Shown in pieces: positions 14,719 through 28,486 of a stretch of DNA of 64,000 nucleotides. The notes under the pieces were generated by a model. It made no database searches and was not told where the DNA came from. It was given only the letters and a program-made list of their open reading frames with translations. The stretch is from a candidate division WWE3 bacterium (GTDB taxonomy: Bacteria; Patescibacteriota; WWE3; JAPLWK01), in contig JAPLWK010000008.1 in the NCBI GenBank assembly GCA_026396615.1, positions 9,096-73,095 of the forward strand, read 5' to 3'. Within the stretch, counting starts at the first letter, position 1, and each line of letters starts with the position of its first letter. The position numbers and the translations under genes were made by a program.

Positions 14719-14861
14719 GCCTCAATCGTAGCTTAAGAAACGAAAAAGGGCCAGACGAGCTTTGTTTTGTTAAACATTGCTTATCTGGCCCTTGCTAACT
14801 ATTTGATCACGACGAAAAGTGGCCTCATTTGCGCTTTCTTTTCGTCATGATCCTAGATTAT

Positions 14862-15995
14862 CTAACCTTTGCCGGCGAAGTCGAGGTACTTGGGTTGGAC
14901 CCAGTCCTTATCCTGCGCACTCCAACCGACCACTCCAATCTCAACGTCAACGAAACTGGAGTTGTTGAGGTCAAAGCGCAAAATCACCGGCGGCTCGTTG
15001 CAGATCCCATTGTCTTTTGTGGGAGTGCAATGAATGCCAACGCCGTGATTCCCAATTGAAAGATCGGTATCGACGCCCTGTACCTTATCACTTGCGTAAA
15101 GTACCGTCATCTTTACCAATCCCGGACCGCCACCACCGACCCAAGCCACCAATCCCGGTGAATCTTTGGCCGTGTACGACTTCCGATGCGCCTCGTAACC
15201 GGCTGTGTCGCCACGCAACGTCAGCGTGAATACGCCTGTGCCCGAGAAGCGGATCAGTCCGCAATTGGGGGCCAGAACAGTCACGCTGCCCGACTTTGTA
15301 GATTGGAAATCAGTACTCCAAGTACAAGACGGGTCCTGACGCTTATCTGGCCGATTGATGATGTACCACTTCAACCCCGCGGTATCTGTGTACACCACCA
15401 TATCGTACTGACCACTGAAAACGCCATTGTCGACCATCTCGTTCGTCCACGTCGAGTATGACAACGAGTACGGCCCGGCTGCCACAGCTGTCACCGCTGA
15501 TGCGGGTGTCGGCGCAGGCGCTGGCTTTTCTGCCGCAACCGCTGCCGCAATCGTCACCGCCAAATTGGCAATGCCCGCATTTTTAGCCGAGTCCACGACG
15601 TATGCACTAACGTTGAACGTACCAGCGGTGCTGTAGTGGTGAGACAACGACATCGAACCGGAAACAACCGAACGTACCTCTTTCGAACCATCACCGTAAT
15701 CTAATGTCACGGTAAGGGGGCCAGTACCGGTGGACCGCATGTTAACTTGCACGGTACCAACGGGGACCGTGGCTGACATGTCGAATTCCAACGATACTGT
15801 AGGGGCCGCAGGTGCCGGTACCGCCGCTGCTGGCTTGAACACGCCAGGGAACGTCTGCGAAACAAACGTGCCGACGTTACTCGCCAACTCTGGACCATTC
15901 TTTGCGATAGACATTCCAGCTCCTGTAAAGAACAGGCATGCCAAGATTATCGCGACCACGAACAACAGAACTTTCACTGGATCATATCGATTCAT
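14862..15995 (-). CDS. Secreted protein with a PKD-like domain
   Basis: N-terminal transmembrane/signal segment; PKD signature TVTLDYGDGS...HHYSTAGTFNVSAYVVD. Confidence 0.55.
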   Translation of the reverse strand: MNRYDPVKVLLFVVAIILACLFFTGAGMSIAKNGPELASNVGTFVSQTFPGVFKPAAAVPAPAAPTVSLEFDMSATVPVGTVQVNMRSTGTGPLTVTLDYGDGSKEVRSVVSGSMSLSHHYSTAGTFNVSAYVVDSAKNAGIANLAVTIAAAVAAEKPAPAPTPASAVTAVAAGPYSLSYSTWTNEMVDNGVFSGQYDMVVYTDTAGLKWYIINRPDKRQDPSCTWSTDFQSTKSGSVTVLAPNCGLIRFSGTGVFTLTLRGDTAGYEAHRKSYTAKDSPGLVAWVGGGGPGLVKMTVLYASDKVQGVDTDLSIGNHGVGIHCTPTKDNGICNEPPVILRFDLNNSSFVDVEIGVVGWSAQDKDWVQPKYLDFAGKG

Positions 15996-16125
15996 TTTCT
16001 CGTCTCCTATTGAACTTATATTTGTCTATTTGTAACCGTGACGCTATTATAACAGAAAAAGCCCTTATTGTCAAACTACGGGTTACGTAGATTTATATGA
16101 CAATAAGGGCTTGGGAGGCACTAGT

Positions 16126-17418
16126 TCAGCATGTCATTAAATTTGCAGCGCTGATTCCACTGTATTTACCAAGCGTCTCCAAAGCTGCCAGTTCATTTGC
16201 CGAAAGCGTTGGCGGTACTGACTCAACTTTAGTTTCTGTTAAGTTTGCTTCGATTGTTTGAGCAATAACAGCTTCAGGTACATAAATCTCGGGGTCGCTC
16301 TCTTCGACCGTAACTGCTGTTGCTGCAACTACTGGTTCTTCAACGACAGGCATTGGGACTAAAAAAAAGATTGATCCGTCATCTTCGGGGTCGTAGCTTT
16401 TATCACCACGCGCACCTTCAAACCAACTTACATCATCTTTAAATCCCCTTACTACAGCATCAGCCGGCCGCTGTAAAACCTCTAGTAACGACAGTTTGCC
16501 AATCGTCTGAGGCGGTACACGAAAACCATCGCAGGTCATCGCAAGCACTCCAATCGGTCGCATATCCGCTTCCAGAGTTTTTACCAAATTCTTCGAGTCA
16601 TAACCAAGTAATTTTCCCTGAAACGATACATCTTGATCATTACCTCGAAGTCCAATAACCTGTGCTTCACCTTTAGTACTCGGAATCGCCAGTGAACCCA
16701 GATCACTCGTAGCGCCTAAGCATAAACAGCTAAGCTGCATTTCACCGGGCTTTCGAGTCGACATCCGTGCTGTTAACATCTGGCCAGTCGTTCCCCCCAA
16801 AACATTAATGTAATCGGGATTACGATCAACATGCGTCAGCACAAAATCAGCCACCAACGTTTCGTCCATCCACACTAGTCGCGGCGCATTTCGAGCAAGT
16901 ACTTCCGCATACTGTGGGCTACCAGCTGCTCCAATAAGAACCTTCTTACTCTTGCGCTGGATAATTTTTACTCCTTGCGGTTCGTGGCCTTCAGGCAACC
17001 AGATATTGGAATTGCCGTCAGCAATGATCCCGCCAAATGTAATATCGCCAGAAGCGGTGTCTTCCATAACAATCGCCGCTTGGCAATCACCAGGTATATG
17101 ATGTTTACCGACTGCGGGGCGGTAAATCTGAACCACGCGAAACGGCTGTGGTTTTGTAGCATAATCGTATACTGCTACCCAAGCCACACCGCCTGCTAGA
17201 TCTTCCCGAGCTACCGGCCGCTTAAATGAACTAAAGCCGTAACTGGGAACAGTCTTATGCAACTGAAGGGCCGAAATCCCAGCCTCACCAACGTCGAAGT
17301 TAGTGGTGACAGTAAAATCAGGTACCTTCAATATCGATCCATTTCCACGTAATAGCGAGCTGGGAACTTGAATAGTAGTTAATTTACCAGCTTGCTCTTT
17401 CGAACTTTTATCTGCCAT
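16126..17418 (-). CDS. Hypothetical protein (430 aa), co-operonic with the kinase; unrecognised fold
   Basis: Nine-bp gap from the kinase gene; acidic C-terminal tail. Confidence 0.4.
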   Translation of the reverse strand: MADKSSKEQAGKLTTIQVPSSLLRGNGSILKVPDFTVTTNFDVGEAGISALQLHKTVPSYGFSSFKRPVAREDLAGGVAWVAVYDYATKPQPFRVVQIYRPAVGKHHIPGDCQAAIVMEDTASGDITFGGIIADGNSNIWLPEGHEPQGVKIIQRKSKKVLIGAAGSPQYAEVLARNAPRLVWMDETLVADFVLTHVDRNPDYINVLGGTTGQMLTARMSTRKPGEMQLSCLCLGATSDLGSLAIPSTKGEAQVIGLRGNDQDVSFQGKLLGYDSKNLVKTLEADMRPIGVLAMTCDGFRVPPQTIGKLSLLEVLQRPADAVVRGFKDDVSWFEGARGDKSYDPEDDGSIFFLVPMPVVEEPVVAATAVTVEESDPEIYVPEAVIAQTIEANLTETKVESVPPTLSANELAALETLGKYSGISAANLMTC

Positions 17419-17427
17419 TTCTAACTC

Positions 17428-18639
17428 CTACTTGTGAACAGCCTTCAGTGCTCTAGCCGTTAGCCGAGACTGACGCTCACTAATCTTTTCCGAGGCAGCA
17501 CGCTTAGAAGCCTCAAAGGTTGCCATTGCTCCACCCATCACGGCATCCGTAACGATCGTATCAAAGGCTTTAAGATCTAACCAGGGATGTCCGGTTAATT
17601 CACCCTTAGCGTACTCCTCACGAAAATTGCGTAAACGCCCCTCCAAAAGAGTCTCCTCATTAGGAAGGTAATCTACTGTAGCAAAATCCTGACGAGCGCC
17701 TTTGATAATGCTGGAGCCAGAGTCCAGAAGAACAATTTCCCCACTAGACGTAAGTCCGATATTTTCGGGCTTTAAGTCAGCGAAGCAAATGTCTAAAGAA
17801 CCAAGCACTTTAAGCATTGTTTTAACATTCTGCAACTTAGTAATTGGGCAGTGCTGACTAACGTAGTAAGCAATACCACGTAGAATTGTTGCTTGATCTT
17901 CTACTCCTCGGTAGCGGTTCATGTGATCTTCGTAACCTTTAAGCAGCAACTTTTGCAAACTGTTGGGAACAAAGTCCATAACCAAAAACATCCGACCGAT
18001 AAAGTCGCTCAACGGTCCCGAAACCTTGTCGTCAATGATCCCAAAGAACGGGATCTTTGGAAAAACTCGGCACGGAAAGCCAAGTACTGGCCAGCGATTC
18101 GCCACATAACCAACTAAAGTGTTGATATACGAAGCGAGGCCACCTTGGTAATCATTTGGGAGAGTAAGCAACCTACTACCTTGCAATTCCTCCGGAATTG
18201 GCAACCCCCTCTCTTCAAAGGAGTGCCGAACGAGTGTTGTGAACCCACTAAGATTAATTTTACGAAAATCGACATAGGAGCGTTGTAAGCTCTCCAGTTG
18301 ATAATCGCTACCAATCCCCATGTTTTCCAACTGCTCCTGTGCTGTATTGAGTAGCTCCAGTAATGCGTTCCGACCGTAGATCTTGTTGGCCCAACGAGCG
18401 TTAGTGGCCACGATCATTGCCGGTGTAGTTAACGCAAAGAGCTGCTCCTCAAAACTTCCTGTAGGCTTTGGTTGGTGAAAAATCTTAACTGCCACGTCTT
18501 TCCAACCGTTCGGAGAGTTGCAAGAGGAAGCAAAAACCTCACCCTCACCACCAATCCCCAAACGATGCCAACTGCTGAAATTAGGAAGTTTATCAAGTAA
18601 CTCAACCCGTAAACCCAGTTTACGATTTGGATATAGCAT
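17428..18639 (-). CDS. Atypical eukaryote-like Ser/Thr protein kinase domain protein
   Basis: Gly-loop GIGGEGEVF, beta3 Lys in VAVKIF, catalytic loop ADLKPENIG, DSG (DFG-like) in LLDSGSS; an insert of about 150 aa between beta3 and the hinge. Confidence 0.6.
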   Translation of the reverse strand: MLYPNRKLGLRVELLDKLPNFSSWHRLGIGGEGEVFASSCNSPNGWKDVAVKIFHQPKPTGSFEEQLFALTTPAMIVATNARWANKIYGRNALLELLNTAQEQLENMGIGSDYQLESLQRSYVDFRKINLSGFTTLVRHSFEERGLPIPEELQGSRLLTLPNDYQGGLASYINTLVGYVANRWPVLGFPCRVFPKIPFFGIIDDKVSGPLSDFIGRMFLVMDFVPNSLQKLLLKGYEDHMNRYRGVEDQATILRGIAYYVSQHCPITKLQNVKTMLKVLGSLDICFADLKPENIGLTSSGEIVLLDSGSSIIKGARQDFATVDYLPNEETLLEGRLRNFREEYAKGELTGHPWLDLKAFDTIVTDAVMGGAMATFEASKRAASEKISERQSRLTARALKAVHK

Positions 18640-18731
18640 CTATCCTCCTAAAAACAAACAAGGCCAATGGAGAGAGAATTAAATTCTTCTTCATTGGCCT
18701 TAACGTGACTAAGCGATGGGTTTTTAAACCT

Positions 18732-19304
18732 TTAGGCTTCGTCACTCGGTTCGATCACAACGTTCGCAGGCGCGACGACAGGTGCCAAAGCGGGCGCCGT
18801 GGTGGTCGTGGTCGTGGTGGTTGCGGCTGGGGCGATAGGAGCAGCGGGTGCCGGTGCTGGTGCACGTCCACTCATTGCTGCTGCCACCATGCCCATCATT
18901 TGCTGCATCATCAGCTGATTCTGAGCGGCTTGTGCTGCCAAAATCGCCTGGATGTCAACCGATGGTCCGGCTGCCGGGGCTTGCGCTTGCAATCCTGCGA
19001 GTTCAACGCGCATCTGAGCAATGAGCTCGGCGTTGTTCTTCTGCATTTCTGCCTTGTGAGCGTCGTCCAAAGCCTGCACCGGATCGATGTACTTGCTCAA
19101 CATCAACCGTAGTTTGCCCTGATCATCAGCGCCCAAACGAACTTTGGTCGAGGTGAAAATGGCGTTAACTGCTGACTCTTGTGCGGCGGTGAGCAAAACA
19201 CTTACCGCTTTCTGTGCGTCGATGTTAGCTCCAGGCTTAATGCCTGCGTCACGGAGTGCACGCTGAGTAGCCGAAGTATTCTTCTTCAAAAAATCTAATG
19301 CCAT
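18732..19304 (-). CDS. Hypothetical protein with an Ala/Pro/Thr-rich low-complexity C-terminus
   Basis: APAPAPAAPIAPAATTTTTTTTAPALAP tail; first gene of the apparent minus-strand operon 19304->14862. Confidence 0.4.
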   Translation of the reverse strand: MALDFLKKNTSATQRALRDAGIKPGANIDAQKAVSVLLTAAQESAVNAIFTSTKVRLGADDQGKLRLMLSKYIDPVQALDDAHKAEMQKNNAELIAQMRVELAGLQAQAPAAGPSVDIQAILAAQAAQNQLMMQQMMGMVAAAMSGRAPAPAPAAPIAPAATTTTTTTTAPALAPVVAPANVVIEPSDEA

Positions 19305-19480
19305 GATAGAAACCTCCTAGGTTTTTCTGACTGAATTAACTAACAGGTTGCTAGTGCTCCTGTATCCCAATTTAACTCTTAATCGTTATTGATTTTAAGA
19401 ACTAAATCGGGATAAGGAGAAGACTATCGATTTTTGAAGTTTATTTGCCTATTTGCTCGAGACGGTGTCTCAATGGCAAA

Positions 19481-19516
19481 CACTATAACATAGTATCTAT
19501 ATTTTGTCAACTATTG
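19481..19516. promoter_or_regulatory. Direct repeat 1 of a pair of about 35 bp (cactataacatagtatctatattttgtcaactattg)
   Basis: Near-identical partner at 19743..19776. Both carry ATTTTGTCAACTAT; they lie in the 584-bp AT-rich region upstream of the kinase operon. Confidence 0.5.
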
Positions 19517-19742
19517 TTTCTCTCAATAAACTTTCCTCAATTTTCAAAGTACCACCAGTAAGCACTAAGGCACTCTGCCAAAGACTTAAAGTGTTACCAA
19601 CTAATTTCTGCTAACTACAAGTTAGAAGATATTAAACGGTAAAAACGTTATATTAATTATTTGAGAGTTTATTTAATCGTTAAGCTGGTAGGGGACTTAA
19701 GCTAAAAGAAGTTAACTCTCTCAGCTCCATTTCAACTGGAAG

Positions 19743-19776
19743 CACTATAGCATAAGTCATCTATTTTGTCAACTAT
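19743..19776. promoter_or_regulatory. Direct repeat 2 (cactatagcataagtcatctattttgtcaactat)
   Basis: See 19481..19516. Confidence 0.5.
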
Positions 19777-19888
19777 GAGATGCTGGGATTTTCGGTTAGT
19801 ATAGTGTCTGGGCATGCCTGCCCGCCTTTGGAGGGCCCCGCCCTAACTAAATAATCCATAAATTAATATTTCGTTATAGAATTAGAAA

Positions 19889-20128
19889 ATGAAAATGGAC
19901 AAGAAATCTAAAAAAGCTGATCAAATCGGCAATCTTTATCGCGCCGCGCTCTATTTAGCCAAAGATGACGTCGATCAAGCGATCCGATTCATATCTAGTA
20001 ATCCTTATCTCCCTAATCCCCCTTACCACCCCTATCAAATAGAGGAACTTAAAGCAGAACCTAAAACTAGACTTAAATTTGCCGAAAAGCTTCTCGATTT
20101 ATACAAACTCCAACTCCGATTACCCTAA
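19889..20128 (+). CDS. Small hypothetical protein (79 aa)
   Basis: ORF only. Confidence 0.3.
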   Translation: MKMDKKSKKADQIGNLYRAALYLAKDDVDQAIRFISSNPYLPNPPYHPYQIEELKAEPKTRLKFAEKLLDLYKLQLRLP

Positions 20129-20449
20129 ATAATGTACCAACCACGCCATAATCATCACATGACCCCCAAAATAAGTGACAACCATCATGCGGGAAATTAA
20201 TTCGACCACTCTCTCGGAAATAGGTCAAACTATGACAGCTACCTTTTGGATAATTTTATAAAAAATAGCAAAATTAATTAAGCGTAATTCCCTACCCATG
20301 TTTTCAATTTCCAACGAATTCCGGAGGGACTATGACACGGCCTATAGCATGTTTGGGATTTATTAGGAGCAGGTCGTTAATCCTGTGGTACAAATGCACA
20401 CGTCGCAAATCCACCAATTCCCGCAAAGCCAAGTTTTCCACATTTCCAC

Positions 20450-20529
20450 GTCATTCCGGGACAAGACCTGGAATCCAGTAAATCTGATTTATCAATTACT
20501 GGATTCCAGATCGCGGCGTCTGGAATGAC
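20450..20529. mobile_element. Minimal MITE: two inverted hairpin repeats flanking a 17-bp core
   Basis: GTCATTCCGGGACAAGACCTGGAATCCAGTAAATCTGATTTATCAATTACTGGATTCCAGATCGCGGCGTCTGGAATGAC. Confidence 0.75.
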
Positions 20530-20786
20530 AAGTTAGATGACCTACCTTCCCTACTTCGTAGCTATGGAGGAAATTAAAGAACCGCACCATTCTCAGGGGC
20601 ATACGCCCTAAGTGCAGTGCGGAATAAAAGCATCCTGGACAGAGGACACTATTGATATTAATAGTATAAGAACCACCGCCGCCGTCAAGAGGATTTTTAG
20701 TGGTTAGGGCATAGGTTTATGAAGGATAACTAAAATAATAAACAGTGGGGCTGTGGAAATGCTGAGAGATAGATTACTTTAAATAT

Positions 20787-20947
20787 GTCATTCCGGGACA
20801 AGACCTGGAATCCAGTAAATCTAAAAAGGCCAATTTCCAACAATTTGCCTAGAATTGGTAGCGAGCAAGGTGAACGTTCTTTCCAAATTGGATATTGGAA
20901 ATTTTACATCTTGTTTTACTAGATTCCGGCTACGGGGCCGGAATGAC
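20787..20947. mobile_element. MITE-like element (161 bp) with terminal hairpin repeats
   Basis: Left repeat GTCATTCCGGGACAAGACCTGGAATCCAGTAAATC, right repeat TTACTAGATTCCGGCTACGGGGCCGGAATGAC. The core contains AATTGGTAGCGAGCAAGGTGAACGTT, related to the 4285..4570 core. Confidence 0.7.
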
Positions 20948-20954
20948 AAGGAGG

Positions 20955-22610: not shown

Positions 22611-22757
22611 GTCATTCCGGGACAAGACCTGGAATCCAGTAATAAATTCGATTTTAAATTTTGAAAATTAATCATTAATAATTGATTAAAAATTAAAAAT
22701 TAAAAATTTATTTAAATTAATTTGATTTACTGGATTCTGAATCAAGTTCAGAATGAC
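22611..22757. mobile_element. MITE-like element (147 bp) with terminal hairpin repeats and a very AT-rich core
   Basis: Left repeat GTCATTCCGGGACAAGACCTGGAATCCAGTAA, right repeat TTTACTGGATTCTGAATCAAGTTCAGAATGAC. The core resembles the AT-rich segment at 53330-53425. Confidence 0.8.
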
Positions 22758-24141
22758 GAATGAGGCTTTGCAACGCTTTGTATACGCTCTTATAACCATC
22801 ACTACTCACATTTTTGGTAAATCCCAGCTTCTTGGATTCGTTTAAACGGCGGCTCGCTTGCGGCACTTGACGCAATTCTCCCGAAAGACCAACTTCACCA
22901 AAGACGACCGTTTTGGCGTCAATTGGTTTATTGGCGACACTACTAGCGACGGCCGCGCAGATTGCCAGATCAACCGCTGGTTCCGAGGCGGTAAAGCCGG
23001 AAGCAACATTAATGTAAACGTCTTTGTCTGACGTTTTAACGCCACAGTGACGTTCGAGTACTGCCAGTAGAAGATTGACGCGATTAATGTTAACACCGGA
23101 TGAAGTACGACGAGGGTAACCAAAAGTGGTTTTTTGCGTTAAAGCTTGAATTTCGACGAGAAGTGGCCGCACGCCTTCAAGAGTGACAGTGACCACCGAG
23201 CCGCTCTGGTTAGCCAACCGTTCCCCTAAAAATAAGTCGCTGGGATTGGCGACTTCTTTTAGACCTTTTTCGACCATTTCTAAAACTCCAACCTCAAAAA
23301 CCGCCCCAAAACGGTTTTTAGTGGTTCGTAACAAGCGATAAAAATGCTGGCCATCGCCTTCAAAGCTTAGAACTGTATCCACAATGTGCTCTAATACTTT
23401 GGGACCGGCGATATCGCCGTCTTTTGTAACATGGCCAACGAGGACAGTTGGGATCCCAAGGCGCTTGGCGGCGGCGGTTAACCGAGCCGCACTCTCTCTG
23501 ATTTGAGCGACAGAACCGGCAAAACTGGAAAGTTCCGAAGTCCACATCGTTTGGACGGAGTCGATGATAAGAAGACCTAAGTTTTGACGGGATTCAAGAG
23601 TGGAAATAATATTGTCTACATTAGTTTCCGAGAGGATTTCAATATTTTCCGACAGTGACCCAACCCGTTTGGCCCGCGAGGCAATCTGGCTGGCCGATTC
23701 CTCCCCAGCCACATAAAGCACACTGCCGCTATCACCCATATCCCCCTTATCTCCCTTATCGACTAAACCCCCTATTTTACTGGCGATTTGAATCAACAAC
23801 GTCGACTTTCCAATCCCCGGTTCGCCAGCGAGAAGTACGACCTGCCCCGGCAGCAACCCACCGCCAAGGACCCGATCCACCTCACCAAATCCCGTTGAGA
23901 TCCGATTATAAGTCGTGCTCTTGACTTCGCTGAGTTTAACTGTTGACCCGGCGAGAGCCGATGATTCTGACGCCATGCGACTATTTTTTACTTTTACTGG
24001 AGCTTTAGCGCTTTTAGTCTGCTCTATTAACGTATTCCACTCACCGCATTTTGGGCACTGCCCAGCCCACCGCAGAGACTCGTTGCCGCAATTCTGGCAC
24101 ACAAAAACCGAAGACGATTTCATGAGATTAGTATAGCTCAT
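22717..24141 (-). CDS. radA: DNA repair protein RadA/Sms
   Basis: N-terminal Zn-ribbon CQNCG...CPKCG, Walker A GEPGIGKST, RadA KNRFG motif, Lon-like C-terminal domain. The last 13 codons and the stop lie inside the MITE right repeat. Confidence 0.85.
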   Translation of the reverse strand: MSYTNLMKSSSVFVCQNCGNESLRWAGQCPKCGEWNTLIEQTKSAKAPVKVKNSRMASESSALAGSTVKLSEVKSTTYNRISTGFGEVDRVLGGGLLPGQVVLLAGEPGIGKSTLLIQIASKIGGLVDKGDKGDMGDSGSVLYVAGEESASQIASRAKRVGSLSENIEILSETNVDNIISTLESRQNLGLLIIDSVQTMWTSELSSFAGSVAQIRESAARLTAAAKRLGIPTVLVGHVTKDGDIAGPKVLEHIVDTVLSFEGDGQHFYRLLRTTKNRFGAVFEVGVLEMVEKGLKEVANPSDLFLGERLANQSGSVVTVTLEGVRPLLVEIQALTQKTTFGYPRRTSSGVNINRVNLLLAVLERHCGVKTSDKDVYINVASGFTASEPAVDLAICAAVASSVANKPIDAKTVVFGEVGLSGELRQVPQASRRLNESKKLGFTKNVSSDGYKSVYKALQSLIRHSELDSESSKSN

Positions 24142-25321: not shown

Positions 25322-25735
25322 CTATGCTTTTAATGATCTAACTTCTTGTAGTCCTTCGTTGGTTAAGTGCTTTTTGTTTTTAATTAATTCTGCGACTTGG
25401 CAGAACTTCTTAAACTCAAAACGCTTCTTTGCTTGTGGTGGGTAACTTTGAAAATATGGAATTATTTTCTCAGAAATATCCTTAAAATTACTTACTTTTA
25501 ACTTTACGTGCGGTCGCCATTTAGCGTAACGCTCATAATTTAAACGGTAAATATTTCCACAACCAAGAGATTGTTTTATTTCCTGTAAAATCGGTTCGTC
25601 ATCTTCCCGCAGTTCAATCTCAAATATGAGACGAACTTCCGGAAATCTGTCTTTATGATTATTAACAGAAATACTAAAACAACCTTCTCCATCAACGAAT
25701 CCAACTACATAGTTTGGATCTAACATAAGGTTCAT
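25322..25735 (-). CDS. LAGLIDADG homing endonuclease (single-motif type) encoded in 16S intron 1
   Basis: Motif VVGFVDGEGCFSISV near the N-terminus; 137 aa; located inside the insertion near E. coli position 1397. Confidence 0.8.
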   Translation of the reverse strand: MNLMLDPNYVVGFVDGEGCFSISVNNHKDRFPEVRLIFEIELREDDEPILQEIKQSLGCGNIYRLNYERYAKWRPHVKLKVSNFKDISEKIIPYFQSYPPQAKKRFEFKKFCQVAELIKNKKHLTNEGLQEVRSLKA

Positions 25736-26730
25736 CCCTTCATCTCCAGACTACCAAATAAAATACGAAGTAGCAAGAGATTACTATGGACTCAGCTGAC
25801 TTCTCGTAAAGCAATTGCTTCAATCTTTACGAGATCTCTCTGGGTCATTTAGAAAACTGTTCCAGGCATCCGAACGAGAGTCACTTCCTCATGACACACC
25901 ATGAGTCGATTTGACTATCCCTGTCAACGGGATTTCGGCTGCCTTTTGCCTCAGGCCCTCCAGACCAGCGCCTCGCGGCTCTGGACCTGCCATGTTATTT
26001 TCTTGACTACCACATTCAGTTTTCATGAACGTGGGATGGATTTTAACCATCTAGTTTTCTAAACTGCCAGACGCGCAATTAAATTTTTGTGTGCAAGACC
26101 CGAGAACGTATTCACCGCAGTATAGCTGACCTGCGATTACTAGCAACTCCAGCTTCATGAGGGCGAGTTGCAGCCCTCAATCCGAACTAAGGTCCACTTT
26201 TGTGGGATTTGCTCCACCTTACGATTTCGCTTCCCTTTGTAGTGGCCATTGTGGCATGTTTCTAGCCCCAGGCATAAGGGCAATACCGACTTGACGTCAT
26301 CCCCGCCTTCCTCCCTCTTGCGAGGGCAGTTCCACTAGAGTGATACAACTAGTAGTAGGGGTTGCGCTCGTTGACCCACTGAAGGGTACGTCTCACGATA
26401 CGAGCTGACGACAGCCATGCAACACCTGTGATAGCCTTCTTGCGAATTTCCCGCGTTTCTGCGGAATAGGACGCTATCATGTCAAACCTGGGTAAGGTTC
26501 TTCGGTTATCATCGAATTAAAGAACATGCTTCGCTGCTTGTGCGGGTCCCCGCCAATTCCTTTGAGTTTTAAGCTTGCGCTCGTACTTCCCAGGCGGTCG
26601 ACTTAACGCGTTAGCTTCGACGAACAATCCACCTTGCGGCGGGCCATCCATCCAGTCGACATAGTTTACGGCGTGGACTACACGGGTCATCGTGTATTTT
26701 AGCTCCTATTACTAGGAGGATCGGACTATA

Positions 26731-27474
26731 TCATTCACTGAAATGTTTGTGACGACTTTGCTTATCTTTAAGATAAAATCGCACCACTTCTTCCGAAAAA
26801 CCGGAAGACGTAATCACTTCAGAGATCCAGCGTTGCTGAAGAATTGAATCTTTGTATAGAAGCAATACTTTAGGCAACATTTGAGGAACTGGTACATAAG
26901 GAATTATGAGCCTTAAGAATTTTTTTAGTTCTTCTACAGAACTTAAATAAACTCTGCTATAGACCTTATTAACCAACGGGCGATGGACAAATCCAACGCT
27001 CGTGTTAATACCCCAAACGATTTTAAAATATCTTTTAATAATTTCGGCTTCTTTTAAGGAATAGCCATCTGTACAAAAAACCCCTTTGCGTTCCCCAATG
27101 ATAGAACCATCATCAAACCACCAGATTGCCAGAGCAAGTGGGGTTAATTTGTTCAACCATCTTCGGGAAACAAGCTTTTTTTGCCTTTTTGTAACCAAGT
27201 TATAATAACCGGTTAAAACTGGCAAAGCTAAGCTTTGATAACGCAACTTAGGATTCTTACTGTAACCATCAGCTGGTTGCTCCCAACAACAAGAGTCGCT
27301 TGATATTTCCTTAAGTTTAGACATTTTCCACCAAAAATATTCTTTCTGGTTTATTGAATGCCTAAAGGATAATCTCGCGTTTTTGTAATTAGGATTTACA
27401 GCTATTGAGGCATCTCCTAAAAGAGAACCTAAAACCACTGCTTCACATTCTTTTGACAAAGGTGTTAGCTTCAT
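26731..27474 (-). CDS. LAGLIDADG homing endonuclease (double-motif type) encoded in 16S intron 2
   Basis: Motifs VVLGSLLGDASIAV and LAIWWFDDGS; inside the insertion at the 785-806 region. Confidence 0.8.
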   Translation of the reverse strand: MKLTPLSKECEAVVLGSLLGDASIAVNPNYKNARLSFRHSINQKEYFWWKMSKLKEISSDSCCWEQPADGYSKNPKLRYQSLALPVLTGYYNLVTKRQKKLVSRRWLNKLTPLALAIWWFDDGSIIGERKGVFCTDGYSLKEAEIIKRYFKIVWGINTSVGFVHRPLVNKVYSRVYLSSVEELKKFLRLIIPYVPVPQMLPKVLLLYKDSILQQRWISEVITSSGFSEEVVRFYLKDKQSRHKHFSE

Positions 27475-28486
27475 TAAGCTATTTTACACCAACTGTCGTC
27501 AATTCTTCATAGTCTCTACGGGAGTCGCCTTAGGCGACCTTCCCTCGGGATTGACCTAAAATAAATTTAGGGTTTCCCCGATACAGCTGAATGCTCATCT
27601 CGATATCGCTATCGAGAGGGACACCATTCCCCCGATAAAATCGGGGACGGACTATCTAATCCGTTTTGCTCCCCACGCTTTCGTATCTCAGCGTCAGAAA
27701 ATTCCCAGGTAGCTGCCTACGCCTTTGGTGTTCCAAGTGCTCTCAACGCATTTCACTGCTACTGCACTTGTTCCGCTACCCCCTAAATATCTCTAGTCTA
27801 GAAGTATCACAAGCAGTTCCAAGGTTGAGCCTTGGGATTTCACCTGTGACTATCTAAACCGCCTACATAACTCTTTACGCCCAATAAATCCGGATAATGC
27901 TTGGATCCTACGTATGACCGCTGCTGCTGGCACGTAGTTAGCCGATCCTTCTTAACGTCGGTTTACGACCCGAAGGCCTTCATCCCGCACGCGGCGTCGC
28001 TGGGTCAGACTTTCGTCCATTGCCCAAAATTCCCGATTGCTGCCATCCGTAGATGTGGGGGCCGTGTCGCAGTCCCCCTCTGGCTGGTCATCCTCGTGAG
28101 ACCAGCTACCCGTCATAGACTTGGTGGGCCTTTACCCCGCCAACTATCTGATAGGCCGCAGGCTCATCCTAAAGCGGCTTGCGCCTTTACTCTTAACTTT
28201 TTACAGTCAGAGACTATTGGGTATTACCTAATCTTTCGACTAGCTATTCCCATCTTTAGGGTAGATTCCTACGTGTTACTCAGCCGTCTGCCGCTACTTA
28301 AACCCTTGCGGGTCTAAATCGCTCGACTTGCATACCTTAGGCACGCCGCCAGCATTTATCCTGAACCAGGATCAAATTCTCAAAAAAAATTCTTTCCACC
28401 TTTAAAACTTTACTTTATCAATGTGATGTCACTTCAATCACGATTTAGTGACACCTATTTGGTTATCAAGGTGCATACCCTTACTT

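Follow-up and report, generated by a model that had tools for sequence, protein, structure and literature searches.

A conserved three-gene locus of WWE3- and Dojkabacteria-type bacteria encodes a divergent kinase and a probable PP2C-like partner

Hanks-type kinases and PP2C phosphatases are commonly encoded in bacteria by adjacent, co-transcribed genes, as in prpC-prkC, phpP-stkP, and pstP...pknB. Here we describe a locus that resembles these pairs, located in a stretch of 64,000 nucleotides from a metagenome-assembled genome of candidate division WWE3 (assembly GCA_026396615.1, contig JAPLWK010000008.1); the whole stretch is called the window throughout. The locus holds four consecutive genes, which, like their products, were designated S (190 amino acids, aa), K (the kinase), L (430 aa), and D (377 aa, PKD-like). 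K and L are identical to two NCBI "hypothetical proteins" of this genome, NT141_01665 and NT141_01660. A preliminary description made from the DNA letters had placed the four genes in one operon, which could form a signalling or effector module of unknown function. We found that the conserved unit is the three-gene operon S-K-L, which runs from 19304 down to 16126 on the minus strand, and that D is a separate, non-conserved surface-protein gene outside this module. On balance, and with some reserve, we lean to the reading in which S-K-L would be a reversible phosphorylation switch composed of a divergent kinase, a probable phosphatase of PP2C type, and S.

The pairs PrkC/PrpC of B. subtilis, StkP/PhpP of S. 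pneumoniae, and PknB/PstP of M. tuberculosis share with S-K-L the adjacency and co-transcription of a kinase gene and a PPM phosphatase gene, the latter being probable in our case. K has in common with the Hanks kinases the Gly-loop, the beta3 Lys, the D-x-K-x-x-N motif, the Mg-binding Asp, and a T-x-x-Y-x-P activation segment, while L shares with the PP2C partners the Asp residues that mark motifs 1, 2, 8, and 11, each of the four being present, and the Gly next to them. Unlike the textbook kinases, K carries a helical insert of ~140 aa between beta3 and beta4, F-A/G-D in place of HRD, and D-S/P-G/S in place of DFG. L, for its part, ranges from 430 to 876 aa and ends in a long variable helical tail; both proteins are below every Pfam and NCBIfam threshold, and the gene of a conserved small protein lies upstream, before a hairpin. 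L is also comparable with the PPMs of the SpoIIE/RsbU/RsbX type and with the group IV/V "DD" bacterial PP2Cs (PMC12088040), given that its motif 11 is DD (D346-D347) and that it has no motif-5 Asp, which suggests a binuclear centre. It departs from these in having no Pfam SpoIIE or PP2C_2 match and in having as partner a Hanks-type kinase and not a GHKL anti-sigma kinase, with no STAS or anti-sigma genes nearby. The nearest solved structures to K by sequence are PKA and Aurora A, but the likeness extends over only about 70-80 residues besides the Gly-loop, the insert replaces or expands the alphaC region, and there is no evidence that K is orthologous to either of them.

The relatives of K were recovered by an exhaustive phmmer search of 1.84 billion cluster representatives with the kinase as query, which gave 11 proteins with E values from 5e-99 to 6e-5 and 26-44% identity. 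In a word-indexed search of 5.8 billion proteins, the K and L queries retrieved only themselves, and the K profile retrieved itself and P0012. Considering that the exhaustive search found a family, the "orphan" status of K is a limit of the word index and not a fact. The named sources of the relatives are WWE3, Dojkabacteria, "Patescibacteria group," or just "bacterium"; the family is rare and, as far as its sources are named, restricted to the candidate phyla radiation (CPR). A scan of genome contigs with the kinase alignment gave only generic archaeal kinases, a scan of viral contigs gave no relative of K and a single generic giant-virus kinase, and a metagenome scan with the L alignment only found again the contig of one locus already in the set (L007).

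Contig DNA was available for ten of the 11 relatives, and these were used as comparison loci. In all ten an L homologue follows K directly; for the eleventh relative, the gene listing of its contig gives the same small-kinase-large order. In nine of the ten loci the L protein was matched by BLASTP to that of the window, with E values of 1e-62 (L005), 1e-59 (L007), and 4e-28 (L014), down to 4e-3 (L019); the L protein of L002 has no direct match to the window L and is connected to it via L005 (2e-10) and L007. The gaps between K and L vary from -62 to +56 bp, and this tight coupling suggests a matched stoichiometry or a complex of both proteins. Upstream of K, homologues of S were found in at least six of the ten loci. 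Those of L005 and L007 were matched with E values of about 1e-14, and those of L015, L012, and L021 by iterated hidden Markov model (HMM) searches, whose best non-seed matches were all the upstream proteins. The sixth, in L011, is an S-like protein with a PQQ-repeat tail at 1806-2384 on the plus strand (HMM E = 1e-4, 53-sequence set); the gene annotated publicly before the kinase in this locus, 1866-2471 on the minus strand, was probably called on the wrong strand. Proteins or fragments of S-like architecture are also located upstream in L014 and L017. The preliminary description had regarded the four genes as a set, and across genomes the 190-aa and 430-aa proteins are conserved with the kinase, while the PKD protein is not.

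The flanks of the module could also be compared. In the window the locus is bounded by RadA and a PIN_4 protein on one side and by a GT4 glycosyltransferase and a 611-aa polytopic membrane protein on the other. RadA is found upstream in L007 and L021, and the 611-aa protein is homologous to proteins of 638 aa and 623 aa encoded downstream in these two loci. The S-K-L locus is specific to its lineage: it is passed on vertically, diverges fast, and occupies a single chromosomal site in CPR bacteria of the WWE3/Dojkabacteria type. A prophage or recent-island origin for K and L was considered and rejected, given their host-like composition and the conserved synteny. The stretch from RadA to the module is variable, with PIN toxin pairs in L007 (6801-8264) and AAA_14/DUF4143 and AbiEii genes in L021 (5823-8812), and a tyrosine integrase is encoded just downstream of the module in L012 (13362-14684) and L015 (14807-16084).

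All the kinase motifs quoted in the preliminary description are present in K, namely, the Gly-loop GIGGEGEVF (28-36), K52 in VAVKIF, ADLKPEN (287-293), and DSG (306-308); the key residues are the catalytic D288, K290, and N293, the Mg-binding D306, and an activation segment with T321..L325-P326. The alignment of the family, formed by the window K and its 11 relatives, keeps G30/E32, K52, D288, N293, D306, T321, and L325-P326, with G30, E32, and K52 invariant or nearly so. In the catalytic loop, of consensus G-D288-L-K-x-x-N293, D288 is invariant, N293 is found in 11 of the 12 members and K290 in eight, and His-Arg is replaced by F-(A/G). D306, kept in at least 11 of the 12, is aligned with the DFG Asp of Aurora A, p38delta, and PKA; the Phe-Gly becomes S-G or P-S, and the family equivalent of this motif reads L-L-D306-(P/S)-(S/G). 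The hinge resembles VMEYVP. The consensus of the activation segment, Q-D-x-A-T321-x-E-Y-L325-P326 (...ATVDYLP in the window), aligns with CGTLDYLPPE of Aurora A, the terminal Glu being variable. The insert noticed earlier after the beta3 Lys was confirmed: ~165 residues separate K52 from the hinge, as compared with ~45 in a canonical kinase. It contains the conserved blocks NAR82(W/F)A, GG167LAxYxN173, and LPKRxF193PxxxxF199G200, in which R82, G167, F193, and G200 are invariant. Since the insert is conserved across the family, we consider it a defining feature of these proteins and not junk.

K was also compared with curated libraries and with the PDB. The Pfam Pkinase model (PF00069) matched residues 272-325 of K with 20.3 bits, below the cut-off of 31.7, and only three of the 12 members matched it at E <= 0.1. 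The alignment of the single K sequence with Aurora A (2.6e-4) covers the stretch between the catalytic loop and GTLDYLPPE, DFG included. The family profile could be aligned with both lobes of PKA, its motifs following one another as they should (2.6e-5), with GIGGEGEV and K52 opposite GTGSFGRV...AMK of PKA, and also with PknA and p38delta. The Pfam, PDB, and PADLOC matches of K were all centred on the catalytic loop. Judged by its motifs and by the family profile, K belongs to the kinase superfamily and is outside every curated family, and it is probably a genuine, active Ser/Thr-type protein kinase, although a very divergent one. The earlier view of K as an atypical eukaryote-like kinase was borne out, considering that the profile aligns with PKA at the Gly-loop and Lys72 as well as at the catalytic loop.

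The proposed identity of L as a phosphatase comes from its invariant residues. The conserved part of the protein is formed by its N-terminal ~340 residues, and the rest is a variable acidic and helical tail. In an alignment of 11 L sequences, with 19-35% identity to the window protein, 15 columns are invariant: R71, A79, P101, H107, D111, G124, D134, G135, G208, T211, Q213, D297, G298, D346, and D347. PP2C phosphatases are defined by four Asp in motifs 1, 2, 8, and 11 together with the adjacent Gly; in the bacterial enzymes motif 11 is "DN" or "DD," and the motif-5 Asp is treated as a later acquisition (PMC12088040). In L the series H..QD / ADG.S / GGST.Q / SDG / DDGT matches the order of the PP2C motifs 1, 2, 4-5, 8, and 11 and is spaced in a similar way, with inter-motif gaps of 23, 77, 86, and 49 residues as compared with about 13, 59, 94, and 38 in PstP. 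The four Asp positions (D111, D134, D297, and D346/D347) and the Gly next to the Asp of motifs 2 and 8 (D134-G135, D297-G298) are among the invariant columns.

The L domain was then compared by hhalign with an alignment of six PP2Cs (PstP, tPphA, PrpC, PPM1A, PhpP, and RsbX). The PstP reference was identical to PDB 2CM1/1TXO, tPphA was taken from the 2J82 alignment, and all but PstP were validated by Pfam as PP2C or SpoIIE members. The best local alignment paired tsDGf...DDGT of L with sDGl...DN.T of the PP2Cs, with a score of 28.4 (P = 0.0043), and the extended alignment paired all the motifs in the same order. Reversed profiles scored 12.5-14.0 and unrelated profiles 14.7-16.1; the highest score among 180 column or block shuffles was 26.2, short of 28.4. 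When the N-terminal part of L was used alone, QDa...iaDG.S was paired with NED...vaDGmg (score 20.0, P = 0.042, 1 of 100 shuffles). In the region of motif 4, G208, T211, and Q213 are invariant, and the best hhalign match of RsbX to L fell on the G-x-T stretch (P = 0.038). On the whole we judge it fairly probable that L has the PP2C fold; its N-terminal ~300 residues most likely form a phosphoprotein phosphatase that depends on metal, has the PP2C/PPM fold, and carries a motif 11 of the "DD" type. The preliminary description had assigned no recognised fold to the 430-aa protein. This stands as regards the curated libraries, with Pfam giving no match for either S or L of the window, and it can now be made sharper: L is the invariable partner of the kinase and bears PP2C/PPM-like invariants.

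The S protein presents an N-terminal DFLKK..SAT.RALR motif, a helical middle part, a Gln/Met-rich helix, and an Ala/Pro/Thr-rich tail. The APAPAP/T8 low-complexity tail noticed earlier is there, and the T8 run is missing from the other five aligned S proteins. Neither Pfam nor the PDB, the latter searched with the S profile, gave a match for S, and no specific match to S, L, or D came from PHROGs, NCBIfam, or PADLOC. Searches of the PDB with L brought out at most coiled-coil noise. Neither signal peptides nor transmembrane segments were read in the sequences of S, K, and L, which suggests that the switch is cytoplasmic. We propose that S is most likely a dedicated target or regulator of K and L.

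Regarding expression, strong promoters upstream of S recur in the window and in L005, L007, L012, L015, and L021. In the window there are two of them, each within a copy of a direct repeat; the distal one would yield a leader of ~430 nt. The repeat and the leader showed no RNA family or convincing small ORF (open reading frame), and an Rfam scan of the intergenic region upstream of S gave nothing above threshold. A stable hairpin is located directly after S in nine of the 11 loci, in the window just before the ribosome-binding site of the kinase gene, and the S-K gap contains a promoter in none of the 11. The terminator after L ends the S-K-L unit, and the -35 hexamer of the D promoter is located within the 3' arm of this terminator. 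The layout points to one transcript for the three genes, which after S would be terminated in part or differ in stability. The S-K hairpin would be a partial terminator or attenuator, or a transcript-stabilising element, which would set the expression of S above that of K and L; for this reason S may be much more abundant than the two enzymes.

In the mechanism that we propose for the switch, K would phosphorylate Ser/Thr residues on itself, on S, and possibly on other proteins, and L would remove the phosphate via a binuclear metal site, so that Ser/Thr phosphorylation would be written by K and erased by L. S, predicted to be soluble, helical, and abundant, with a conserved Ser/Thr-containing motif at its N-terminus and a Pro-rich tail, would be the best candidate for the regulated output. 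Taking into account that the invariants of L are PP2C-like, the earlier "module of unknown function" becomes a probable triad of kinase, phosphatase, and substrate. Of the "signalling or effector module," then, what stands is the kinase with S and L as its conserved neighbours; nothing indicates an effector role, and the module of four genes does not stand.

Several observations weigh against the phosphorylation switch. For the kinase, the catalytic-loop Lys is lost in four members of the family, no invariant Glu that could correspond to the alphaC Glu was found between K52 and the hinge in the 12-member alignment, and the single-sequence AlphaFold model had low confidence (mean predicted local distance difference test, pLDDT, of 36.6), with an uninformative fold search. 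With respect to the textbook pairs, the kinase gene precedes the phosphatase gene, and K is a soluble protein that lacks transmembrane segments and sensor domains, PASTA included. The role of S as substrate is suggested by gene linkage only. For the phosphatase, Pfam PP2C, PP2C_2, and SpoIIE gave no match at E <= 10 in ten L members, hmmsearch of the L profile against the PDB gave no PP2C and only coiled-coil noise, the hhalign probability for L versus PP2C was only 8%, and the middle third of the domain (motifs 3-7) behaved no better than shuffles against the PP2C profile. Moreover, the motif-5 Asp is absent, R100, the equivalent of the motif-1 Arg, is not invariant, and the AlphaFold model of L from its single sequence was again of low confidence (pLDDT 32.9; Foldseek TM <= 0.13, noise). 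The failed library searches, the weak hhalign probability with its missing mid-domain signal, and the missing motif-5 Asp would also be expected if L were not a phosphatase but a kinase-associated protein of a new fold, be it a substrate, a scaffold or activator, or another metal-dependent enzyme, whose PP2C-like motifs are convergent or coincidental; the long variable coiled-coil tail would suit a scaffold. We consider this unlikely, since the two halves of the domain independently pick the expected PP2C motif pairs above shuffles and the four catalytic Asp with both adjacent Gly have remained invariant at such low identity. Asp, Gly, and His that stay invariant in a protein otherwise evolving fast point to an active site rather than to a passive substrate.

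Other explanations concern the whole locus. If the four genes, with that of the PKD protein, were one signalling or effector operon, the kinase would control the surface protein or be controlled by it. The genes are indeed co-directional and adjacent, and the product of the gene that comes next after L is likewise an anchored protein with a Pro/Thr/Ala linker in five other loci, so the position may be functionally linked even where the sequences are not similar; yet the strong terminator after L (z = -4.9) and the 12/12 promoter of the PKD gene separate this gene from the unit, no homologue of the PKD protein was detectable at this position in any other locus, other genes occupy the position in L012, L015, and L019, and the GC content at third codon positions (GC3) of 0.61 in the PKD gene contrasts with 0.45 in K and 0.38 in L. 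The operon of four genes proposed earlier is thus contradicted by the terminator and the promoter, and a functional unit of this extent seems quite improbable to us. Even less probable is that K acts, by analogy with protein O-mannose kinase, as a small-molecule or glycan kinase that would work on the envelope with the nearby glycosyltransferases. Genes of the GT2, GT4, and GT-C/PMT_2 types do occur close to the module, both in the window and in the majority of loci, and some K members have weak Pfam matches to APH, ABC1, RIO, and fructosamine kinase. But these glycosyltransferases belong to a lineage synteny shared with homologous flanks and for that reason are not evidence of the function of K, none of the three proteins carries a signal peptide or transmembrane segment, and K has a protein-kinase activation segment (D306...T321-x-x-Y-L-P, aligned with DFG...GTLDYLPPE of Aurora A) and keeps the Lys of Ser/Thr kinases in D-L-K-x-x-N. 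The idea to which we give the least credit is an anti-phage defence or toxin-like kinase system. It finds some basis in the PADLOC match of K to the PD-T4-6 kinase (1.1e-5, 23 bits), also a stand-alone bacterial kinase of the eukaryotic protein kinase type, and in the loci already mentioned where PIN toxin and AbiEii genes separate RadA from the module or where an integrase adjoins it. However, that match covers 43 residues of the generic catalytic loop and not the full length, K has fixed partners and a fixed chromosomal position with no mobile-element context in the window, its composition and that of L are host-typical, the scan of viral contigs found no relative, and divergence to 26-44% identity along with the partners is a vertical pattern and not that of a mobile defence island. 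We do not count K among the defence kinases of the PD-T4-6 type.

The four minus-strand ORFs proposed earlier were confirmed, as were the 9 bp between the stop of the kinase gene and the start of L; their coordinates are given in Table 1 together with the other features. Each is preceded by a Shine-Dalgarno-like GGAG(G), and the annotated frame was the best of six for all of them according to the codon usage of 24 other genes of the window. The slightly higher GC that had been ascribed to the four applies to the PKD and S genes (GC 0.547 and GC3 0.61 for D, GC 0.56 and GC3 0.565 for S, versus a window GC3 of 0.46 +/- 0.05), the only ones with raised GC3; K and L have an ordinary composition (GC 0.46 and 0.47, resp.), their GC3 of 0.45 and 0.38 being close to the window value.

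Table 1: Positions of genes, signals, and domains of the locus, in window coordinates except where a comparison locus is named.
Feature	Position	Strand	Remarks
Distal sigma-70-like promoter upstream of S	19744..19772	-	TTGACA-17-TATAGT, extended TG; 11/12 consensus match only
Proximal sigma-70-like promoter upstream of S	19482..19510	-	TTGACA-17-TATAGT, extended TG; 11/12 consensus match
45-nt direct repeat holding both S promoters	19470-19514 and 19732-19776		76% identical, 262 bp apart
S (190 aa)	18732..19304	-	ORF; predicted cytoplasmic
S-K stem-loop and U-rich tract	18650..18701	-	AAGGCCAAUG...CAUUGGCCUU; -28.3 kcal/mol, z = -3.45
K (403-aa kinase)	17428..18639	-	ORF
L (430 aa)	16126..17418	-	ORF
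Proposed PP2C/PPM-like catalytic domain of L	16339..17241	-	aa about 60-360; invariants and hhalign
Intrinsic terminator after L	16052..16112	-	15-bp stem GCCCUUAUUGUCA...UGACAAUAAGGGC, then UUUUUCU; z = -4.9, 0/200 shuffles fold as well
Sigma-70-like promoter of D	16046..16074	-	TTGACA-17-TATAAT, TG-extended; 12/12 match
D, PKD-like protein (377 aa)	14862..15995	-	ORF
Terminator hairpin and U-tract after D	14746..14793	-	z = -8.8 for the 126-nt region holding two hairpins
Anchored proteins encoded after L	window 14862-15995; L002 11996-12859; L007 13225-14157; L011 6826-7542; L014 3314-4006; L021 13437-14567		

D has a membrane-anchored N-terminus, an A/P linker, one PKD-like domain (aa about 63-140), and a C-terminal beta-rich domain. 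Regarding its earlier description as a secreted PKD-domain protein, an N-terminal membrane anchor was seen, and the PKD call comes from sub-threshold matches (PF18911, 23.7 bits versus a cut-off of 27; PF00801, 18.5 versus 23.5) and from LDYGDGS...HHYSTAGTFNVSAYVVD, which can be read in the sequence as a counterpart of the PKD signature WDFGDG...HxY..xGxYxVxL. D gave no match in the PDB, and no homologue of it was detectable downstream of the kinase in any other locus. Its identification with PamR was discarded, as the NCBIfam match (30.7 bits versus 300) covers only this Ig-like domain and the Pam system lacks a kinase. Proteins with an N-terminal anchor, a Pro/Thr/Ala-rich linker, and a Cys-containing beta-rich domain are encoded directly after L in six loci, the window being one of them, and only those of L007 and L021 are detectably homologous to each other; the position may be a slot for rapidly evolving surface proteins.

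Some features of the surroundings are worth describing. Divergent from the promoter region of S there is an ORF of 79 aa (19889-20128, plus strand) with good coding statistics and no family match. Between this ORF and the PIN_4 gene, an intergenic stretch of 0.8 kb holds a palindromic repeat of ~36 nt (GTCATTCCGGGACAAGACCTGGAATCCAGTAAATCT) and inverted relatives of it (20445-20530, 20786-20822, and 20915-20952), two copies being 100% identical; its Rfam similarities are only sub-threshold (Wolbachia sRNA46, mir-982), and it looks like an element of the REP/MITE type (repetitive extragenic palindrome or miniature inverted-repeat transposable element). The C-terminus of RadA (22717-24141, minus strand) reads ...IRHSELDSESSKSN, resembling a translated palindromic repeat of the same type, and such a repeat may have been inserted into the 3' end of its gene. 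Further away, the 16S rRNA gene (26035-28387, minus strand) has 2353 nt as compared with a model of 1533 nt and contains a LAGLIDADG_2 endonuclease ORF (26731-27474, minus strand); just downstream of it, a LAGLIDADG_1 ORF (25322-25735, minus strand) abuts a match to group II intron D1-D4 (25735-25822, minus strand). The 5' end of the 23S gene is at 1-608 on the minus strand, 25 kb from the 16S, and so the rRNA genes are unlinked. Interrupted 16S genes, LAGLIDADG and group II intron elements, and unlinked rRNA genes are typical of CPR genomes.

The genomes of CPR bacteria are very small and encode few regulators that can be recognised as such, and their lineage-specific genes are mostly annotated as "hypothetical." Our literature searches brought up no publication dealing with kinases or PP2C of WWE3 or Dojkabacteria. 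S-K-L does not reveal a new kind of system. A broader proposal, which we advance tentatively, is that of a phospho-switch specific to WWE3 and Dojkabacteria, whose enzymes would be unrecognised deep branches of the protein-kinase and PPM superfamilies, or in which L would be a new kinase-coupled enzyme fold; the abundant S would then be a structural or membrane-associated factor controlled by phosphorylation, with a possible link to the fast-evolving surface protein and the adjacent glycosylation genes, which would connect it with the envelope or with host contact in these ultrasmall bacteria. With the switch that we favour, three hypothetical proteins become a probably complete Ser/Thr phosphorylation circuit, with a writer, an eraser, and a likely target, at one site across WWE3 and Dojkabacteria. 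If this is true, two very divergent families would be added to the kinase and PPM superfamilies, one of them a kinase with an unusual N-lobe insert and DSG/DPS, and the locus would offer a tractable handle on regulation in an uncultured clade, considering that the three proteins are predicted to be soluble and their expression in E. coli should work.

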